Assembly (NCBI GenBank): GCA_951406725.2
Contig: OX597819.1
Span: forward strand, 13,392,001-13,456,000
Origin: Octopus vulgaris
Taxonomy: Eukaryota
Direction of reading: 5' to 3'
DNA: 64,000 nt
Shown here piece by piece: positions 279 to 33,400 of the stretch; within the stretch, counting starts at the first letter, position 1; each line of letters opens with the position of its first letter. The notes beneath the pieces are model-generated. The model was given only the letters and a program-made list of their open reading frames with translations. It searched no databases and was not told the DNA's origin. The position numbers and the translations under genes were made by a program.

Positions 279-3200
279 ACAGGGGAAGGGCCCGGCATGT
301 ACATCAACAAAATACTTTAAGACCTTTTTTACAATAAGAAACAGGGGAAGGGCCCAGCATGTACATCAACAAAATTCTTTAAGACCTTTTTTACAATAAC
401 AAACAGGGGAAGGGCCCAGCATGTACATCAACAAAATACTTTAGGACCTTTTTTACAATAAGAAACAGGGGAAGGGCCCAGCATGTACATCAACAAAATA
501 CTTTAAGACCTTTTTTACAATAAGAAACAGGGGAAGGGCCCAGCATGTACATCAACAAAATACTTTAGGACCTTTTTTTACAATAACAAACAGGGAAAGG
601 GCCCAGCATGTACATCAACAAAATACTTTAGGACCTTTTTTACAACAACAAACAGGGGAAGGGCCCAGCATGTACATCAACAAAATACTTTAGGATCTTT
701 TTTACAATAACAAACAAGGGAAGGGCCCAGCATGTACATCAACAAAATACTTTAGGACCTTTTTTACAACAACAAACAGGGAAAGGGCCCAGCATGTACA
801 TCAACAAAATACTTTAGGACCTTTTTTACAATAACAAACAGGGGAAGGGCCCAGCATGTACATCAACAAAATACTTTAGGACCTTTTTTACAATAACAAA
901 CAAGGGAAGGGCCCAGCATGTACATCAACAAAATACTTTAGGACCTTTTTTACAACAACAAACAGGGAAAGGGCCCAGCATGTACATCAACAAAATACTT
1001 TAGGACCTTTTTTACAATAACAAACAGGGGAAGGGCCCAGCATGTACATCAACAAAATACTTTAGGACCTTTTTTACAATAACAAACAAGGGAAGGGCCC
1101 AGCATGTATATCAACAAAATACTTTAGGACCTTTTTACAACAACAAACAGGAAAGGGCCCAACATGTACATCAACAAAATACTTTAGGACCTTTTTTACA
1201 ACAACAAACAGGGAAAGGGCCCAGCATGTACATCAACAAAATACTTTAGGACCTTTTTACAATAACAAACAAGGGAAGGGCCCAGCATGTACATCAACAA
1301 AATACTTTAGGACCTTTTTTACAACAACAAACAGGGAAAGGGCCCAACATGTACATCAACAAAATACTTTAGGACCTTTTTTTACAATAACAAACAGGGG
1401 AAGGGCCCAGCATGTACATCAACAAAATACTTTAAGACCTTTTTTACAATAACAAACAGGGAAGGGCCCAGCATGTACATCAACAAAATACTTTAGGACC
1501 TTTACAATAAGAACCAGGGAAGGGCCCAGCATGTACATCAACAAAATACTTTAAGACCTTTTTTACAATAAGAAACAGGGGAAGGGCCCAGCATGTACAT
1601 CAACAAAATACTTTAGGACCTTTTTTACAATAACAAACAGGGGAAGGGCCCAGCATGTACATCAACAAAATACTTTAGGACCTTTTTTACAATAACAAAC
1701 AGGAGAAGGGCCCAGCATGTACATCAACAAAATACTTTAGGACCTTTTTTACAATAACAAACAAGGGAAGGGCCCAGCATGTACATCAACAAAATACTTT
1801 AGGACCTTTTTTACAACAACAAACAGGGAAAGGGCCCAGCATGTACATCAACAAAATACTTTAGGACCTTTTTTACAATAACAAACAGGGGAAGGGCCCA
1901 GCATGTACATCAACAAAATACTTTAGGACCTTTTTTACAATAACAAACAAGGGAAGGGCCCAGCATGTATATCAACAAAATACTTTAGGACCTTTACAAC
2001 AACAAACAGGGAAAGGGCCCAACATGTACATCAACAAAATACTTTAGGACCTTTTTTACAACAACAAACAGGGAAAGGGCCCAACATGTACATCAACAAA
2101 ATACTTTAGGACCTTTTTTACAATAACAAACAGGGGAAGGGCCCAACATGTACATCAACAAAATACTTTAAGACCTTTTTACAATAACAAACAGGGGAAG
2201 GGCCCAGCATGTACATCAACAAAATACTTTAGGACCTTTTTTACAATAAGAAACAGGGGAAGGGCCCAGCATGTACATCAACAAAATACTTTAGGACCTT
2301 TTACAATAACAAACAGGGAAAGGGCCCAGCATGTACATCAACAAAATACTTTAGGACCTTTTTTACAACAACAAACAGGGGAAGGGCCCAGCATGTACAT
2401 CAACAAAATACTTTAGGATCTTTTTTACAATAACAAACAAGGGAAGGGCCCAGCATGTACATCAACAAAATACTTTAGGACCTTTTTACAACAACAAACA
2501 GGGAAAGGGCCCAGCATGTACATCAACAAAATACTTTAGGACCTTTTTTACAATAACAAACAGGGGAAGGGCCCAGCATGTACATCAACAAAATACTTTA
2601 GGACCTTTTTTACAATAACAAACAAGGGAAGGGCCCAGCATGTACATCAACAAAATACTTTAGGACCTTTTTACAATAACAAACAGGGGAAGGGCCCAGC
2701 ATGTACATCAACAAAATACTTTAGGACCTTTTTTACAATAACAAACAAGGGAAGGGCCCAGCATGTATATCAACAAAATACTTTAGGACCTTTTTTACAA
2801 CAACAAACAGGGAAAGGGCCCAACATGTACATCAACAAAATACTTTAGGACCTTTTTTACAACAACAAACAGGAAAGGGCCCAGCATGTACATCAACAAA
2901 ATACTTTAGGACCTTTTTTACAATAACAAACAAGGGAAAGGGCCCAGCATGTACATCAACAAAATACTTTAGGACCTTTTTTACAACAACAAACAGGGAA
3001 AGGGCCCAACATGTACATCAACAAAATACTTTAGGACCTTTTTTACAATAACAAACAGGGGAAGGGCCCAACATGTACATCAACAAAATACTTTAAGACC
3101 TTTTTTACAATAACAAACAGGGAAGGGCCCAGCATGTACATCAACAAAATACTTTAGGACCTTTTTTACAATAAGAAACAGGGGAAGGGCCCAGCATGTA

Positions 3201-4772
3201 CATCAACAAAATACTTTAAGACCTTTTTTACAATAAGAAACAGGGGAAGGGCCCAGCATGTACATCAACAAAATACTTTAGGACCTTTTTTACAACAAAC
3301 AGGGAAAGGGCCCAGCATGTACATCAACAAAATACTTTAGGACCTTTTTTACAATAACAAACAGGGGAAGGGCCCAGCATGTACATCAACAAAATACTTT
3401 AGGACCTTTTTTACAATAACAAACAAGGGAAGGGCCCAGCATGTACATCAACAAAATACTTTAGGACCTTTTTTTACAACAACAAACAGGGAAAAGGGCC
3501 CAGCATGTACATCAACAAAATACTTTAGGACCTTTTTTACAATAACAAACAGGGGAAGGGCCCAGCATGTACATCAACAAAATACTTTAGGACCTTTTTT
3601 ACAATAACAAACAAGGGAAGGGCCCAGCATGTATATCAACAAAATACTTTAGGACCTTTTTTACAACAACAAACAGGGAAAGGGCCCAACATGTACATCA
3701 ACAAAATACTTTAGGACCTTTTTTACAACAACAAACAGGGAAAGGGCCCAGCATGTACATCAACAAAATACTTTAAGACCTTTTTTACAATAACAAACAG
3801 GGGAAGGGCCCAGCATGTACATCAACAAAATACTTTAGGACCTTTTTACAATAAGAAACAGGGAAGGGCCCAGCATGTACATCAACAAAATACTTTAAGA
3901 CCTTTTTTACAATAAGAAACAGGGGAAGGGCCCAGCATGTACATCAACAAAATACTTTAGGACCTTTTTTACAATAACAAACAGGGAAGGGCCCAGCATG
4001 TACATCAACAAAATACTTTAGGACCTTTTTTACAAAACAAACAGGGGAAGGGCCCAGCATGTACATCAACAAAATACTTTAGGATCTTTTTTACAATAAC
4101 AAACAAGGGAAGGGCCCAGCATGTACATCAACAAAATACTGGGACTTCAACAAAAACGGGAAAGGCCCACTGTACATCAACAAAATACTAGGACCTTTTT
4201 TACAATAACAAACAGGGGAAGGGCCCAGCATGTACATCAACAAAATACTTTAGGACCTTTTTTACAATAACAAACAAGGGAAGGGCCCAGCATGTACATC
4301 AACAAAATACTTTAGGACCTTTTTTACAATAACAAACAGGGAAAGGGCCCAGCATGTACATCAACAAAATACTTTAGGACCTTTTTTACAATAACAAACA
4401 AGGGAAGGGCCCAGCATGTATATCAACAAAATACTTTAGGACCTTTTTTACAACAACAAACAGGGAAAGGGCCCAACATGTACATCAACAAAATACTTTA
4501 GGACCTTTTTTACAACAACAAACAGGGAAAGGGCCCAGCATGTACATCAACAAAATACTTTAGGACCTTTACAATAACAAACAAGGGAAGGGCCCAGCAT
4601 GTACATCAACAAAATACTTTAGGACCTTTTTTACAACAACAAACAGGGAAAGGGCCCAACATGTACATCAACAAAATACTTTAGGACCTTTTTTACAACA
4701 ACAAACAGGGAAAGGGCCCAGCATGTACATTGACAAAATACTTTAGGACCCTTTTTTACAATAACAAACAGG
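279..4772. repeat. Satellite, 62-bp unit, ~72 copies
   Basis: Unit acaggggaagggcccagcatgtacatcaacaaaatactttaggaccttttttacaataacaa repeated head-to-tail. Confidence 0.98.
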
Positions 4773-5966
4773 TCTTCTTCAGCACAGTGAATCACCATTT
4801 ATCTTGGTCTCTGTATGTAAAACGAAGACACAAGTCAATTTTTGGCACAAACCCTGTTTGCTCACCAGATGTCCATTATAAACATTGCTTTTTTTTTTAT
4901 CTGTTTATATAATCTATCTTTTAGTTGTTGTATTTTCATTATTTCTTTGTTTGCCATATATTTATTTACATATTTTATAGAGTTATATATTTTATTCGTC
5001 TCACTGTTATTGTTTCTTTTTATTTGATTTCAAAGTTTCAATATTTTGTTTTATTTTTTTTTCTTTGAAATTTATAAACAATTTTATTTAAAAGAATTTT
5101 GTTAATTTTTGTGTAATTCCAATGAAAATATGATTCTAATTTATTCCATATTTTTACTTATTTCATTTTTGTTTTAATTTTTCTTTATTTTTTGGTTTCT
5201 TTTTTTCTTTTTGTTTTTCTTCTTTAGTGAACCTGAGACTGAAACAACAAATGCATATAATGTGTATGTTCTTTGTTTTTGTTTAATTCCTTCAAGCAGG
5301 CTTCATTCAGGCTGCTACTACTAACACTACTACTACTAATACCTATACTACTACTACTACTAATGCTGCTACTGCACTCTCTTAGTCTTCTCACTTCTTC
5401 ATGGTTCTTGCAGTGCCTTTTATCTTCCTTCCAAATATCCTTCAAACAATTCCCTCTAATGATCTCCTCCACTTCCATATACCTTTACCATCACTGTCTG
5501 GCCTTCCCCTTGTTTTATAAACTCTACTAAATCACTTTATGTAATTCTTTTATTGTGGCCATGCTGGAGCACTGACTTTAACTGATGATATTGATTCCCA
5601 TGTCTGTCTATTATTTTATTAACCTTGTAAAGACAAATTTTCAAATTCAACTCGGGTGTAAAAGAACAGAGCCAAATACCACAAGCAGACCAATTCTGCA
5701 TCCAATGTTGCTATACATATGTGATGCATACATACTTCTGAAGTTGAAGAAAATACTACAACAGGAGTCATGTATGAAACCCGAGGTATCAGAGTAACTA
5801 CTGTAGTGTTTTCAGTTTCAAAAATAAACGTGCACACACACACACACACACACACATACATACACACAAGTGAGTTTGGAGGGATATATTATCCAAGTGG
5901 ATGCCATATTAGCTCTCAGTTATGTTCCAGCTAACCACAACAATCAGTATCTAACATTTGTGACTA

Positions 5967-22131: not shown

Positions 22132-22219
22132 GTGGACGACTTTATTCTACTGCAGCCATGATCAAAACATGTCAGGCTCAAGTGAGTCTTTGGATACAAC
22201 AATTCACTTACAAGATCGG
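22132..22219 (+). CDS. TMEM63: TMEM63 exon a: WTTLFYCSHDQNMSGSSESLDTTIHLQDR
   Basis: ttattcttcag| ... |gtaagt; 88 nt; joins in phase 0 to the GFCSW exon. Confidence 0.88.
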
Positions 22220-23591
22220 GTAAGTTTGCAACATGGCCACAGTCAAGTGTCTGAAACAAGTAAAAGGATAAAAGAATGCTAAATTTGATAACCATGACTG
22301 TTTGGGATTGTCACTGGACACATTCACTCAACTGTGACAGCTTAAACTTGTGGTGCAAAACATTGTTGCATGACAATTCACTTGCAAGAATGTGTGCGTG
22401 TGTATATGTATGTGTGCATGTATATGTGTGTGTGTACGTGTAGGCATGTGTGTGTATGTGTATATGTATGTTTGTATATATATGTATGTGTGCGTGTATG
22501 TATGTGTGCGTGTATGTATGCATGTGTATATGTATGTGTGCGTGTATGTATGTGTGTGAGTATATATGTATGCGTGTGAGTATATGTGCATGCTTGTGAG
22601 TATATATGTATGCGTGTGAGTATGTATGCATGTGGTATATATGTGTGTATGTGTGTATATATATGTATGTGTATATGTATGTATATAAATGTGTGTATAT
22701 GTATATATGTGTGTGTCTGTGCATGTATATGTGTGTATGTGTGTGTATATATATATATGTATGTCTATATATGTATGTATATGTATATATGTATATTCTA
22801 CTGCAGCCATGATCAAAATATGTCAGGCTCAAGTGAGTCTTTGGATACAATTCACTTACAAGATCGGGTAAGTTTGTGTATATGTGTGTATGCATGTGTG
22901 TGGTTTGTGGGTGGAGGTGTTTCATTCATGCAGGCCTGGTGAGCCATCAAAATTCTCATAGAAATTGACCCATGATAAACAATGATGTCGCTATTAAAAT
23001 TCACAACAGAACGTGTGCAAAATGTGGAAGGGTGTGCCTCTCAGTTGGCGGTCTAAAAAGACATGTTAAGTGAGTGCATACGGTGGCACCTGTTTCTCCT
23101 GCCAGCCAGCACAGTTGTCTAGTATGTAATAAGATGTTTAAAAGCTTGGCCGGGCTTAAAGGTCATATAAGGGCATCACATGGCAACAATTATGAATAAT
23201 TTCAGTGAGTTTTCTTGGCAATGACTTTTCTCCTGTAACGAGGATGAAGCTGTGTGATATATGTGTGTATATGTATGTATGCGTATGTGTATATGTTTGT
23301 ATGTATGTATGTGTGTGTGCGTGTGTGTGTGTGTGTGTATGTAGGTATATGCATGTATGTATGGATATGTGTATGAGTGTATATGTATATATGTGTATAT
23401 GTATATGTGCGTATGTATGTGTGTGTGTGTATATATATATACGTATGTATGTATACATGTGTGTGTGTGTGTATATATATATAAACTCTGCCAGATCAAG
23501 ATTGAAGCCTGGTGCAGCCATCTGGTTCGCCAGCCCTCAGTCATTCATCCAACCCATGCTAGCATGGAAAGTGGACGTTAAACGATGATGA

Positions 23592-24458: not shown

Positions 24459-27400
24459 ACATATATAATTTTAGCAGTAACCACTAGGGTATGATCTTCA
24501 ATGTGGGAGATAGCTATTTGCCAACTAGGGTAAACTATGCCAAAAAAACAAAGTCACACTCCCACTTTCTGCTTGACTGCATAATATTTTAAGAGCTTCA
24601 TTCATTCATACAATATCACAGGTGAATGAGATGTTTGTATAAAATTAAAATCATTCTTTAATGAAAAGCTCTATTTTAAATGTTCTCTTGGTTAAACCTT
24701 CTCCTGCTTCACTGACATCTTGTTTTTGACTGCATTATCCTCACCAAGGCACAATGGCCCAGCTCCAGGAGTTGTTAAGAGGTGTCTGTGGTTGGGGATG
24801 GGCAAAGATCATTACAGTAAACAGTACATTTATTGTGTATATTTCTGGAATGTTTTTTCATTAGCTTTGAACACCCACCACCAAGACAAGAAAAACTAAA
24901 CAAAAAGAGAAAGCAAACACCAAACCCTGTATTAGTTTTAGTTAAGTTATTCTTAAGATATTTAATGTAGGAAACATTAACTCTTTGATGATTTAATAAA
25001 AATGTTGAGTGAGGGCCTTTTTCATTTGTTTGTTGAAATAATTTAGAGATCTCTTTATGTGGCTAACCACTAATGAACTCTTGTATATTACTCTTTTATT
25101 CGTTTCAGCCATTTGACTGTGGCCATGCTGGAGCACCGCCTTTAGTCGAGCAAATTCAACCCAGAGCTTATTCTTTGTAAGCCTAGTACTTATTCTGTTG
25201 GCCTCTTTTTCTGAACTGCTAAGTTACGGGGATGTAAACACACCAGCATTGGTTGTCAAACGATGTTTTGGGGGACAAACACACACACAAACATATACAC
25301 ACACACACACACATATACCAGCGGCGAGCTGGTAGAAACGTTAGCACGCCGGGCGAAATTCGTAGCCGTATTTCGTCTGTCGTTACGTTCCGAGTTCAAA
25401 TTCCGCCACGGTCGACTTTGCCTTTCATCCTTTCAGGGTCGATAAATTAAGTACCAGTTATGCACTGGGGTTGATGGAATCGACTTAATCCCTTTGTCTG
25501 TCCTTGTTTGTCCCCTCTGTGTTTAGCCCCTTGTGGGTAGTAAAGAAATACATATACGACAGGCTTCTTCCAGTTTCTGTCTACCAAATCCACTCACAAG
25601 GCTTTGGTTGGCCCCAGGCTATACTAGAAGACACTTGCCCAAGGTACCACGCAGTGGGACTGAACCCGGAGCTAGCTACTTACCATGCAAAAAATACGTT
25701 AGTGTGTTTATTAGTGATATTGTACATCTATGGCAATTGACTCTTACCTTTTCTTTTGTCTTTTATCTTGTTTCACTCATTTGACTATGACCATGCTGGA
25801 GCACATTTTAGTCAAATGAATTGACTCGGTACTTTTTTGTTTTAAGCCTGGTACTTATTCAATCAATCTCTTTTGCCAAACTGCTAAGTTATGGACACAT
25901 AAACACACCAACACCAGTTGTGAAGCAATGGTGGAAGATACATAAGGTGGCAAGCTGGCAGAAACGTTAGCATGCCCGGCGAAATGCTTAGCAGTATTTC
26001 ATCTGCCATTACGTTCTGAGTTCAATTTCCACCAAGGTCGACTTAGCCTTTCATCCTTTCGGGGTGATTTAAATAAGTACCAGTTATGCACTGGGGCTGA
26101 TTTAATCGACTTAATCCCTTTGTCCTTGTTTGTCCCCTCTATGTTTAGCCCCCTGTGGGTAATAAAGAAATAAATGGTGGGAGACACGTTATCTTTGTTT
26201 GTCCCCTCTATGTTTAGCCCCCTGTGGGTAATAAAGAAATAAATGGTGGGAGACACGTTATCTTTGTTTGTCCCCTCTATGTTTAGCCCCCTGTGGGTAA
26301 TAAAGAAATAAATGGTGGGAGACACGTTATCTTTCTTTGTCCCCTCTATGTTTAGCCCCCTGTGGGTAATAAAGAAATAAATGGTGGGAGACACGTTATC
26401 TTTGTTTGTCCCCTCTATGTTTAGCACCCTGTGGGTAATAAAGAAATAAATGGTGGGAGACACGTTATCTTTCTTTCTCCCCTCTATGTTTAGCCCCCTG
26501 TGGGCAATAAAGAAATAAATGGTGGGAGACACGTTATCTTTGTTTGTCCCCTCTATGTTTAGCCCCCTGTGGGTAATAAAGAAATAAATGGTGGGAGACA
26601 CGTTATCTTTCTTTGTCCCCTCTATGTTTAGCCCCCTGTGGGTAATAAAGAAATAAATGGTGGGAGACACGTTATCTTTGTTTGTCCCCTCTATGTTTAG
26701 CCCCCTGTGGGCAATAAAGAAATAAATGGTGGGAGACACGTTATCTTTGTTTGTCCCCTCTATGTTTAGCCCCTGTGGGTAATAAAGAAATAAATAGTGG
26801 GAGACACGTTATCTTTGTTTGTCCCCTCTATGTTTAGCCCCTGTGGGTAATAAAGAAATAAATGGTGGGAGACACGTTATCTTTGTTTGTCCCCTGTGGG
26901 TAATAAAGAAATAAATGGTGGGAGACATGTTATCTTTCTTTGTCCCCTCTATGTTTAGCCCCCTGTGGGCAATAAAGAAATAAATGGTGGGAGACACGTT
27001 ATCTTTCTTTGTCCCCTCCATGTTTAGCCCCCTGTGGGTAATAAAGAAATAAATGGTGGGAGACACGTTATCTTTGTTTGTCCCCTCTATGTTTAGCCCC
27101 CTGTGGGTAATAAAGAAATAAATGGTGGGAGAAACGTTATCTTTCTTTGTCCCCTCTATGTTTAGCCCCCTGTGGGTAATAAAGAAATAAATGGTGGGAG
27201 ACACGTTATCTTTGTTTGTCCCCTCTATGTTTAGCCCCCTGTGGGCAATAAAGAAATAAATGGTGGGAGACATGTTATCTTTCTTTGTCCCCTCCATGTT
27301 TAGCCCCCTGTGGGTAATAAAGAAATAAATGGTGGGAGACATGTTATCTTTCTTTGTCCCCTCTATGTTTAGCCCCCTGTGGGCAATAAGAAATAAATGG

Positions 27401-30400
27401 TGGGAGACACGTTATCTTTGTTTGTCCCCTCTATGTTTAGCCCCCTGTGGGCAATAAAGAAATAAATGGTGGGAGACACGTTATCTTTCTTTGTCCCCTC
27501 TATGTTTAGCCCCCTGTGGGTAATAAAGAAATAAATGGTGGGAGACACGTTATCTTTGTTTGTCCCCTCTATGTTTAGCCCCCTGTGGGCAATAAAGAAA
27601 TAAATGGTGGGAGACACGTTATCTTTGTTTGTCCCCTCTATGTTTAGCCCCCTGTGGGTAATAAAGAAATAAATGGTGGGAGACACGTTATCTTTGTTTG
27701 TCCCCTCTATGTTTAGCCCCCTGTGGGCAATAAAGAAATAAATGGTGGGAGACACGTTATCTTTGTTTGTCCCCTCCATGTTTAGCCCCCTGTGGGTAAT
27801 AAAGAAATAAATGGTGGGAGACACGTTATCTTTGTTTGTCCCCTCTATGTTTAGCCCCCTGTGGGTAATAAAAAAATAAATGGTGGGAGACACGTTATCT
27901 TTGTTTGTCCCCTCTATGTTTAGCCCCCTGTGGGTAATAAAGAAATAAATGGTGGGAGACACGTTATCTTTCTTTGTCCCCTCTATGTTTAGCCCCCTGT
28001 GGGTAATAAAGAAATAAATGGTGGGAGACACGTTATCTTTCTTTGTCCCCTCTATGTTTAGCCCCCTGTGGGTAATAAAGAAATAAATGGTGGGAGACAC
28101 GTTATCTTTGTTTGTCCCCTCTATGTTTAGCCCCCTGTGGGCAATAAAGAAATAAATGGTGGGATACACGTTATCTTTGTTTGTCCCCTCTATGTTTAGC
28201 CCCCTGTGGGTAATAAAGAAATAAATGGTGGGAGACACGTTATCTTTGTTTGTCCCCTCCATGTTTAGCCCCCTGTGGGTAATAAAGAAATAAATGGTGG
28301 GAGACACGTTATCTTTGTTTGTCCCCTCTATGTTTAGCCCCCTGTGGGTAATAAAGAAATAAATGGTGGGAGACACGTTATCTTTGTTTGTCCCCTCCAT
28401 GTTTAGCCCCCTGTGGGTAATAAAGAAATAAATGGTGGGAGACACGTTATCTTTGTTTGTCCCCTCCATGTTTAGCCCCCTGTGGGTAATAAAGAAATAA
28501 ATGGTGGGAGACACGTTATCTTTGTTTGTCCCCTCCATGTTTAGCCCCCTGTGGGTAATAAAGAAATAAATGGTGGGAGACACGTTATCTTTGTTTGTCC
28601 CCTCCATGTTTAGCTCCCTGTGTGTAATAAAGAAATAAATGGTGGGACACACGTTATCTTTGTTTGTCCCCTCCATGTTTAGCCCCCTGTGGGTAATAAA
28701 GAAATAAATGGTGGGAGACACGTTATCTTTGTTTGTCCCCTCCATGTTTAGCCCCCTGTGGGTAATAAAGAAATAAATGGTGGGAGACACGTTATCTTTG
28801 TTTGTCCCCTCCATGTTTAGCCCCCTGTGGGTAATAAAGAAATAAATGGTGGGAGACACGTTATCTTTGTTTGTCCCCTCCATGTTTAGCCCCCTGTGTG
28901 TAATAAAGAAATAAATGGTGGGAGACACGTTATCTTTGTTTGTCCCCTCCATGTTTAGCCCCCTGTGGGTAATAAAGAAATAAATAGTGGGAGACACATG
29001 TGTACATGCGCATGCACACACACACACACAGACACGTATTTTGTCTTCAAAAAAATGTATATTTAAATCAGGACAGATTTTTACCATAAAGGATCTTTTA
29101 CCAGTTCATCAAAAAATTATACATATGCTATTAAATGTTAAGGATGTAATGAAGATTACATATCTTCAACAAAACTAACTATTCACAGACAGCAAATGCG
29201 AAACCCCTATACTAGACAAATCCCACTGAGTGGACACATAGACATATGTGCAAAAAACAAATCTCCTAAATTCCAAGTCTTTCCACTTTGTTTGTTCAGG
29301 CAATATCATAGACCAAGCATGAATGAAGAAAGAAAATATATTCATACAAAAATTTAAAAAAATAAAACTGAATAAACTTTAACAAAGTGGGGATGGAAAC
29401 TTAAAAAAAATTTCTAAGCCTAATCATGTGATAATTCTCAACCAAAACAGATACTAATGTGAGCTATGTTCTCTCTATAAAAACAAGAGAATTCTTGAAC
29501 TCCAATCAGAAGCAAGACAGTTGCTGCATAGCTCTGTGTCTTTCTGTTTCGACTTTTGAGAATCAGAGACATCTGTGAAACTGGTTAAAAAATTTTAAAT
29601 ACAAAATCTAAATAAATTCCACTGTATTATCATCTTGTTTTTTCTATATTTCTGCCCATGTAGAATAAAATAACTTTGTTTTATATATATCATTATCATT
29701 GTTTAGCATCTGTTGTCCATGCTGACATGGGTTGGGTGGTTTGGCCAGGGCTAGTAAGCTGAGGATCTGCACCAGTCTCCAGTCTGATTTGGCATATATA
29801 TATCATCATCATCATCATCATCGTTTAGCGTCCACTTTCCATGCTAGCATGGGTTGGATGGTTCAACTGGGGTCTGGGAAGCCAGAAGGCTGCACTAGGC
29901 CCAGTTTGATCTGGCAATGTTTCTACGGCTGGATGCCCTTCCTAATGCCAACCACTCCATGAGTGTAGTGGGTGCTTTTTACGTGCCACAGGCACAGGTA
30001 CCAGACGAGTCTGGCAAACGGTCACGATCGGATGGTGCTTTTTATGTGCCACTGGCATGGGGGCCAGGCGAGGCTGGCAACGGCCACGAACGGATGGTGC
30101 TTTTCACGTGCCACTGGCACGAGGCCAGTCGGGGTGGCGCTGGCAACAGCGGCACTGGTAACTCAGCTGCAATTTCCATTGATCGATTTCGATTCTGATT
30201 TGTATGTATATAAAAGTATACATTCCAGTTTCTTTGTTTCTATCTACCAAATTTACTCACAAGGCTCTGATCAGCTTGAGGTTACAGTAGAAGACACCTA
30301 ACTAAGTTACCGGACAGTGGGTCTGAACCCAGAACCATGTTTAATACATCCCAAAAGGATGAAAGGCAAAGTCGACCTCAGTGGAATTTGAACTCAGAAT

Positions 30401-33400
30401 GTAACGGTAGACAAAATATTGCTAAGCATTTCACCCGGTGTACTAAACGTTTTTGCCAGCTCGTCACCTTCTCAGAAAAATTGCTTTGCTCAGTATTCTG
30501 AAAAGGTACAACTTCCATAAGGTGTACCCAGTGTAAAGTATGGATGTGATAGGTTCAGAGACAGGCCAACAGAGTAGGTCACCTCTGTATGTACCAGTTG
30601 AACAAAAGTAGTCAGCAGTAAATGTACGCAAAGAATGCCTTTGAGACTTGACAAAAGTAATTGATAGTTTTGTTGCCAAGGTGACCTAAATAGCAGTGTA
30701 GGTGGGCACCATGAATGTGTAGTAACCATAGCAAGAACAAGGTGGGAAAAGTCAAGGACTGTAACAAAGGGATCTATCACAGATTGAAGGGCTGATGGTT
30801 ATGCTTGTGTTCAAAGTATGGGAGCAAGATGTGGGCCTTAAATTCTGAGGACTTGCAAAAAAAAAAAGGGGTGGGGGAAGAAATGGGATGAATATGCTAC
30901 ACTGGATGTGTAACATTAATGTTTAAGAACAGCAGAGCACAAGTAAACAGAAGTTGGGTATAAGAGGAATGGGATTAGATGTGCAAGTGTTTGTAAGATT
31001 GTGATGGTATAGGTATGTGTATAGAGGTTGTCAGTTGTATTAAGAATCTGTAGAAGAGGGAAATCTCAGACACAGAATGAAATGATGAAGACCGAAGAAG
31101 CTAAACCTCCTGAAAGATACAACTACTGGCCATGAGGAATGGCAACACACAGTGTTGGAGAGGACCTACCTATTCATGCAGACACAAACAATTGAAAATT
31201 AAAATGATGGTGGTGGTGGTCATGGTTGGGTTGCATGTTGTCTACATTTGGGTATCTTGTGTATGATCTTTCTGTTAAGTTTCCATCAATTACCCTTCTT
31301 GTCTCTTCATTACCCTCTCATCTTTCAAACACACTGTATTATTTACTGCACTCCCCCACCTTGTAACAAAAGATGGTATTGGATCTGTCTGCATTCAACT
31401 CCTGACCCCATTACTTTTCTTTACTATCTTTCTTTTACATCTTTCTCTCAACACTCCCTCCTTCATCACTTGGTTTTAACATCACTCTGTCTTCCTCCTA
31501 TAATTCATTATTGACATATACTGTGCTCTCATCCCTCTCTCTCAACACACTGCTTTCTAATCAATGTCCTTACCAACAACCATCATGTAGCTACCTATCA
31601 CAATCTCTCCACTACTACTTTGTCTATCACTCTCTCATCCCTGTTCTCTCTCCTCCATTCCACTCTCTTCTTTTCACCTTCTCTCTCACATTGCATTGAA
31701 TGAAATGATGTAATTAGTTTTAGTAAGAGCAAGGCAAATGCTTGTTTTGGTGCCAGTCTAAAATTCATCCAATACATTCTGTAAAGTGGCTAGCATCCAG
31801 CAATAGAAGCCATGCTAAAAATGGATTGTACAAATAGACTCAGACCCCAACTCATCTAGTGGAGGAGTGACTCCAAATAAGAAACAACTTTAGTTATTTT
31901 ATACTGGTATGTGAACATGACAACCCTTGCTAGCATGAAAACAGACCATAAACTGAGGAATGTATGTATGAGAAATAAATAAAAGAGACAGACTAGCTTT
32001 TCAATACCTGACACACAGCCACTCATTTCCACCTTCCCTTCCTAAATACTTCTCAGTAGTGGTGGCCTTTTCCTCCATTTTCTTCTCTTCTGTCTCTGTT
32101 TTTTTCCTGTCTTGCAAGTTTACATGGCAATCTCACTAGTGCCAGTAGCATGAAAACAAACACCCAGTATACTCTGTAAAGCAGTTGGCATTAGGAAGGA
32201 TGTCCAGGTGTAGAAACCATGCTATAGATGACATTGAAACTCGATGCAGCCTTACACTTGATGGTTCCCTATCAAACTGTCGTACACATGGCAGCATGGG
32301 TTAGACGGTTTGACCGGAGCTGGCTAGGCAGAAGACTGTACAAGGCTTCAGTGTCTGTTTTGGCATGGTTTTTACAGCTGGATATCCTTCCAAATGCCTA
32401 CCACTCTACAGTGTGGACTGGACACTTTTTATGTGGCACCATATATATGTATATATATATATATATATAGCTAATATATAATTTTCTTGTATTTTTAGGG
32501 ATTTTGTTCATGGATTGCTGCATTTATACGAGTCAAGTAAGAAAACTATTTTCTTTCGCTGTTGTTCTTTATTTATTGAAGAATTATTATAATTAGCATT
32601 ATAATATCTAATATCCTCCTTTTAATTATATCACTTGATGAAAATAATGATGTAGTTGTTGCCGTAAAAGTAGATTAATCCATGATTGGCTGGGGTGTCT
32701 GCTGAATCGGGGCTGATCAGAGGCTAAGCAACAATGCCAGCATGACGCTGTAAATACTAGGGGTCCATTTCAATTTGGGACCACATTGTTATGAAATGCA
32801 GTACTTGATTGGTTCTCTCATTTACTTGGCTATGTGATTCACTCTTTGCAGAGATGCAGATATTCTTCGCAAATGTGGCCGTGATGCAGTACAGTACCTG
32901 TCATTCCAGCGGTACCTTTTGGTCTACCTCTGTGTGATATGTACCCTCTCAACTGCTGTTGTGTTACCTGTTAACTTTCAGGGCAATCTTGGTAAGTATG
33001 AACTGAACCGTACAATTTATATTAGAAATAAGTCACTACAATTTTGAGAAGACTAGTCTATAACCTGTACTAACCAAATTGTGTTAGTGTTACACAAAGT
33101 TCCACGTAGTATGTAGATATGGTTGTTTGCAGTGTGATTTCAAACCATGCCAAAGTCAACTTTGCTTTTATCCTTCTGGGATTGATAAAATAAAGTACCA
33201 GTAAAATACTAGGGCTGATATAATCAACTTACCTTCTTGGCTTTCAAGATATGTATTAAGATTTACTTTGTATTTATTTTGTTTTTATAATTTTCAGTTG
33301 GTAATTCCACCGATTTTGGCCACACAACAATTGCTAACGTTGATTCCAGGTAAGGAATATTTCCCAGCATTATATTTACTTGAATATTTATAAATATTCT

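Follow-up and report, generated by a model that had tools for sequence, protein, structure and literature searches.

The octopus TMEM63 gene carries, in the intron after its coding exon 4, a partial copy of that exon, which is probably a UG-flanked pseudo-exon: mostly silent, derived from templated repair at the edge of a LINE, and expected to trigger nonsense-mediated decay if it is spliced in. The window (the whole 64-kb stretch of Octopus vulgaris DNA that was analysed) contains most of this TMEM63 (CSC1-like) gene, which encodes a mechanosensitive channel. Its 24 coding exons form a chain that spans from 7.7 kb upstream of the window to 17 kb downstream of it, and the translated chain is an exact match to the O. 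vulgaris record P0043. Coding exon 4 (22132-22219, + strand, 88 nt), here called exon a, is constitutive and is the template of the copy; it belongs to the exon chain, is spliced in a presumed-RNA contig of sequencing run X17, and encodes WTTLFYCSHDQNMSGSSESLDTTIHLQDR in the M0-M1 loop of the protein. Coding exon 5 (32499-32536, +) provides the acceptor for exon a and, in the annotated isoform X4, for the copy.

The partial copy of exon a and its reading frame

The copy (22794-22876, +) consists of 77 exonic nt and 9 nt of donor and is identical to 22143-22228 at 83 of 86 nt (E 1.5e-34), 651 bases downstream of the template. The first-pass annotation had placed a duplicate of the 3' part of exon a and its donor ~650 bp downstream, and our search bears this out. 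The alignment also agrees with its statement that the copy has two differences only, a C>T change at 22819 (AAC>AAT) and the in-frame loss of 3 nt (ACA). The exon a donor is retained in the copy and the exon a acceptor is absent from it. As proposed earlier, an AG at 22805-22806 would define a candidate 61-nt cryptic exon (22807-22867, +) with the phases and the donor of exon a; it carries an in-frame ATG (22820-22822) and reads HDQNMSGSSESLDTIHLQDR. We reproduced this structure and recomputed both of its predicted effects. Used in place of exon a, it would give a protein of 793 aa instead of the normal 802, i.e., the expected removal of 9 residues. Used after exon a, it would shift the frame, as had been claimed, with a stop at the copy's second codon and a 122-aa product. 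The genome search found the exon a unit at two places only (the original and the copy), and no copies of 20 nt or longer of the other TMEM63 exons (24-exon set) were detected in the 94-kb locus.

Other features of the gene were recorded as well. The O. vulgaris record P0041 begins with MATVK at 22233-22246 (+), within a short repeat past the exon a donor, and reaches exon 6 via a donor 27 nt downstream; it is probably a noisy or mis-called isoform. Two 39-nt exons are located near the TMEM63 C-terminus (69146-69184 and 77825-77863 in window numbering; L004 and L005), and isoform length differences of 12-13 aa in octopods and cuttlefish suggest that one of the two is optional. The introns also hold large tandem arrays, of 62 nt x 73 at 279-4772 and of 69 nt x 42 at 26126-28997. 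Elsewhere in the genome (G000:C14:51786008-51788032, +), an open frame of 723 aa without introns shows 35% identity to TMEM63 residues 17-727 and, judged by this similarity, is a distant paralogue or an old retrogene of TMEM63.

Flanking repeats and origin of the copy

Three neighbouring features were absent from the first-pass annotation: a surrounding 400-nt TG/TA microsatellite, a LINE 17 nt past the copy, and a second exon a fragment. Exactly at the end of the duplicated unit begins a high-copy short repeat, which we take to be SINE-like and of which the 3' 50 nt are present (22229-22278, +). The second exon a fragment (22373-22389, +; 17 nt, 16/17 identical) lies directly before the degenerate TG/TA microsatellite (22390-22793, +; ~400 nt), which is upstream of the copy and UG-rich in the pre-mRNA; a comparable exon a fragment was found in 0/42 control windows of 600 nt. 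The 3' end of the copy stands 17 nt before the 5' end of the truncated LINE (22894-23250, +), which is followed by the LINE's own TG/TA microsatellite tail (23251-23482, +). The local element represents the last 360 nt of the family repeat plus this tail, and its private substitutions amount to 17 in 328 columns (5.2%), a divergence computed from 60 of the 67 family copies. In longer copies of the family, the encoded reverse transcriptase has a C-terminus of RTE type, and from these reverse-transcriptase and C-terminal motifs we presume that the LINE belongs to the RTE clade. RTE LINEs have been reported from the O. vulgaris genome (PMC13282606).

The copy is likely a product of templated DNA repair. 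The DNA would have been broken at the LINE 5' junction or in the microsatellite and repaired by new synthesis that used exon a close by as template, with at least two jumps; the presence of two pieces with a local template beside the 5' edge of the LINE fits such iterative templated repair. Sequence copied from a local template reaches to within 17 nt of the LINE at its 5' junction, and patchwork insertions templated from flanking DNA are described as a known repair product (PMC12426944). In being a locally templated patchwork at a LINE 5' junction, the copy resembles the insertions of microhomology-mediated repair and the extra nucleotides of LINE junctions (PMC12426944; PMC2912911), the latter reported at the 5' junction of 14.6% of 5'-truncated L1 elements (PMC2912911). 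Unlike the L1 elements of that study, the octopus LINE is RTE-like, and the candidate repair product is longer and farther from its template (83 nt, 651 nt away) than typical templated insertions. Polymerase-theta insertions are given as usually <25 bp (PMC12426944); 83 nt, in our assessment, is long for such an insertion, which counts against a repair origin. A coupling of the duplication to the LINE insertion is plausible rather than shown, and the copy may instead stem from a break that hit this microsatellite later. Unannotated tandem exon copies are described as abundant, some of them expressed (PMC9013439); the octopus copy resembles these duplications as a near-identical exon copy in the adjacent intron, and differs from them in that it is partial and lacks the original acceptor.

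We also surveyed the junctions of other LINE family copies. Of 38 family copies (the local one included), 18 had a purine-pyrimidine microsatellite at the 5' junction, vs 148 of 1850 control positions (8%). Unique local duplicates ending within 40 nt of the junction were found in 3/61 other LINE copies and 2/183 controls (p = 0.10), in a survey that skipped 6 of 68 loci with the 5' end near an edge and probably missed the 5' end in ~9. Among the surveyed copies, the geometry at TMEM63 was matched by L032 only (G000:C8:67472400-67478200), where 51 nt from 965 nt upstream are repeated (88%), ending 11 nt before the LINE junction. L048 carries 21 nt of its own LINE sequence, inverted, at the 5' junction.

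A different origin, which we regard as possible but doubtful, treats the two 86-nt units as a long target-site-like duplication flanking a 565-nt insert (22229-22793), with the LINE already beside the donor and the function of the copy as in the preferred explanation. In its favour, the truncated short repeat begins (22229) precisely where the unit stops on its right, and a microsatellite resembling a retro-tail closes the insert. However, the composite insert occurs in one piece at none of the other loci among 40 scored, target-site duplications are mostly ≤20 bp by the account of PMC6007223, and the 17-nt exon fragment within the insert would require a local template anyway.

Splice signals, isoforms and possible uses of the copy

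The internal acceptor named in the first-pass annotation looks usable: it scored 8.7, within the range of the gene's 23 real acceptors (1.4-15.8, leave-one-out) and in the top 1.2% among 1442 intronic AGs, with a crude matrix built from TMEM63's own 23 acceptors and a T-rich repeat that inflates the score. No other AG is found in the 185 nt preceding it. A YTNAY branch-point consensus is absent within 100 nt of the copy's acceptor, whereas exon a has CTAAT at -30. TG density around the copy is 0.43 upstream and 0.48 downstream, compared with maxima of 0.27 and 0.24 around the real exons (n = 24). The AG inside exon a equivalent to the copy's acceptor was considered as an alternative acceptor giving a similar deletion, and was rejected with a score of 0.5 and no protein using it.

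UG repeats are present beside both splice sites. Cryptic exons with UG-rich flanks are repressed by TDP-43 in mammals (PMC5959245), and the octopus copy is like them in its UG runs on both sides, its usable splice sites and its non-conserved exon; it differs in having arisen from a coding exon of its own gene, and the TDP-43 repression in that study was shown in mammals. The genome contains two TDP-43_N matches over the cut-off (L087 and G000:C17:60861086-60861307, -), 28 kb apart, which suggests a tandem TDP-43 gene pair. From this analysis, inclusion of the copy is probably repressed. We propose that the copy retained a strong donor, that a passable acceptor was supplied by the T-rich repeat, and that the UG runs would recruit TDP-43, so that, with the branch-point consensus missing, inclusion would stay low. 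Leaky inclusion after exon a would lead to the stop and to decay, and rare or mis-mapped junctions would give rise to the X4 annotation.

The X17 contig (organism B, presumed RNA, depth 38.5) contains a 36-nt cassette exon, exon a with ACA, and exon 5, and skips the copy; being one contig from one run, and contigs dropping rare forms, it represents the main isoform only. Small word shares in six presumed-RNA runs were considered as evidence of copy use and dropped because 22915-23245 is high-copy LINE sequence (643 candidates). The octopod protein cluster (n = 13) consists of 11 proteins with full exon a, one that starts farther downstream and one that begins at the copy's ATG; internal use of the copy was found in none of the 13. 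A search for shorter proteins with the loop yielded five candidates, none of which scored. The only annotated use of the copy is therefore at a start: O. sinensis RefSeq isoform X4 (P0044, XP_036360093.1; 697 aa) begins at the copy's ATG, has the copy's single T, uses the copy's donor and joins exon 5. It equals P0001 from residue 93 minus one T, and without the first 92 residues the first membrane helix is lost. This annotation is compatible with a stop-causing inclusion downstream of exon a, with an internal first exon, or with mis-mapped reads; as the copy and exon a share their last 21 exonic nt, junction reads with short overhangs can be mis-assigned to the nearer donor.

The first-pass annotation had read the copy as a nascent mutually exclusive exon, replacing exon a and making the loop 9 residues shorter. 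We now regard this as highly improbable. The two exons are homologous neighbours with the same phases, compatible splice sites and an open 793-aa frame, as expected under the definition in PMC3228551, and the loop has low confidence in the structural model (pLDDT <50 at 68-97), so that a deletion may fold. However, the lengths differ (61 vs 88 nt) and the encoded protein part is not the same, with WTTLFY lost, although loops are allowed some difference. The swap would delete WTTLFYCS, the best-kept motif of the loop, present in 78/80 full-length homologues (isoforms counted apart) and, as a looser pattern, in 90/95 further loops including vertebrate TMEM63C and amphioxus; it is modelled as a short helix at 81-86 (pLDDT <50). 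By sequence comparison the motif is kept from molluscs to vertebrates, and the copy is likely not a swappable exon because its use would delete it. As to exactly one exon per transcript with both in use, we found one contig with exon a only and 0/13 proteins with the copy internally; a transcript with the swap would keep the normal start, whereas X4 starts at the copy's ATG. Of the exclusion mechanisms listed in PMC5740500 (steric hindrance at <50 nt, U2/U12 incompatibility, competing base pairing, frameshift), the first three were not found: steric exclusion would need a shorter intron than the 587 nt present, each donor is of U2 type, and no stretch complementary to the duplicated unit beats E 0.85, with only short-repeat copies pairing with the flank. 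The frameshift on joint inclusion is present, and decay of joint products is one known route to apparent exclusivity (PMC5740500).

The first-pass annotation had also linked the duplicated exon to the alternatively spliced exon 4 of mammalian Tmem63b; alignment moves this link to coding exon 3, the 36-nt cassette (5228-5263, +), and pairs exon a with the constitutive stretch after exon 4. Mammalian TMEM63B exon 4 (39 nt, aa 80-93) carries an RER retention signal (PMC9830214). The copy lies in the same M0-M1 loop, but it is the octopus cassette that is the counterpart of exon 4; the cassette has no RxR motif, and its homology, as far as the aligned residues go, is positional only. Forms with and without the cassette exist in octopus, cuttlefish, abalone, periwinkle and brachiopod. 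A protein insert ending in Y-N/D-V/I was present in 63 proteins, lacking in 67 and different in 6, and inserts ending in YNV/YNI were also found in nemerteans, an annelid and a barnacle. Among the papers listed by our literature search we found no published account of this cassette exon, and those listed for TMEM63 in octopus held nothing on the copy.

Two regulatory uses of the copy were weighed against the preferred pseudo-exon reading. It is quite unlikely that the copy is a regulated poison exon, whose inclusion after exon a would stop translation and lower the TMEM63 dose via nonsense-mediated decay, with UG-binding proteins in control. The stop at the second codon on joint inclusion lies far before later junctions (122-aa product, 20 exons downstream), the acceptor and donor are within the real range, the copy has fewer substitutions than predicted (see below), and a gene caller would presumably write an X4-like start for such a transcript. 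Against it, no contig joining exon a to the copy was present in X17, and the conservation excess is borderline and could be caused by gene conversion or by a copy younger than the LINE. An internal first exon, with transcription from the microsatellite region and TMEM63 starting at the loop methionine without its first membrane helix, is very unlikely. X4 lacks the helix modelled at 36-74, and starts after this helix are also annotated in three Schistocerca species (P0094, P0095 and P0098) and in Pomacea (P0077). But 48 ATGs in 22390-22819 precede the copy's ATG, and the 21 identical final nt allow the read mis-assignment described above. Jointly, we put these two uses at about one in four; they are kept alive by the low substitution count. 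A fuller version, in which a repair scar at the LINE junction was recruited as a regulated exon (a TDP-43-gated poison exon or an internal first exon) and has been retained among Octopus species, is unlikely.

Age, conservation and meaning of the copy

The first-pass annotation had named the presence of the copy in relatives as a check, and the ACA-less form was found both in the O. sinensis model and in a contig of organism D (DNA run X7). The O. sinensis/O. vulgaris split is dated to ~2.5 million years ago (10.1101/2023.05.16.540928). The comparison of sequencing runs covered contigs only, 82 bases and 4 of 21 runs; among these, the runs numbered X19 and X4 yielded no contig at the locus, a result that does not argue against the copy. 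The first contig of organism D is its exon a; it matches the copy including the T over 22794-22849, and 3 of 30 loose letters differ from O. vulgaris exon a. The second contig aligns ungapped on 22820-22871 (without ACA) and is identical to the copy at 51/52 positions. An overlap of 30 letters between the two contigs implies a branch, with these letters also present in another sequence. Most simply read, organism D carries the copy, the assignment of the ACA-less contig to the copy being drawn from the contig's own sequence. A less likely alternative is that the real exon of organism D lost ACA, but the corresponding spacing is 5 residues in 79/79 matching loops. An assembly artefact in O. vulgaris is barely conceivable and largely refuted: low-complexity flanks on both sides would favour one, but the copy has its own differences and its ACA-less form recurs in these two relatives.

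The real exon of organism D has T, and thus the synonymous difference is no evidence of selection on the copy. Contrary to the earlier claim of a synonymous change in the copy, the C/T difference probably arose in O. vulgaris exon a. At the age of the LINE, 4.3 changes would be expected in the 83 nt of the copy; relative to the inferred ancestral exon 0 were observed (P(0) = 0.012), or 1 if the T is the copy's own (P(≤1) = 0.067). Between O. vulgaris and organism D, copy-type sequence differs at 1/52 positions (2/53 with the branch site) vs 4/~29 neutral-like sites (Fisher p 0.053-0.11). Both tests share data and use few sites. By these comparisons, the copy shows fewer substitutions than the LINE age predicts, a borderline result (p 0.01-0.07), as if it were younger than the LINE or better conserved. 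Selection on the copy, its later origin, or gene conversion by exon a would each be enough to account for the low divergence. The ACA loss alters the spacing that is constant at 5 residues in the matching loops (79/79), as relaxed constraint would predict, and this change joins the loss of the WTTLFYCS motif (78/80), the absence of internal use (0/13) and the X4 start in speaking against a mutually exclusive exon.

If the pseudo-exon reading is true, the octopus TMEM63 copy is one more intronic exon copy with an origin readable at a retrotransposon junction, and it matters little. If it is under selection, the copy would offer a dated example in which a repair patch at a LINE junction gave a mechanosensitive channel gene a regulatory exon; the poison form would set the TMEM63 dose, and the first-exon form would be a channel without the first membrane helix. 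Reads derived from the copy can be told by the T allele and the ACA loss, so that the regulated-exon case can be tested with existing octopus RNA-seq. The old 36-nt cassette at the TMEM63B exon 4 position may matter more for channel biology than the copy.
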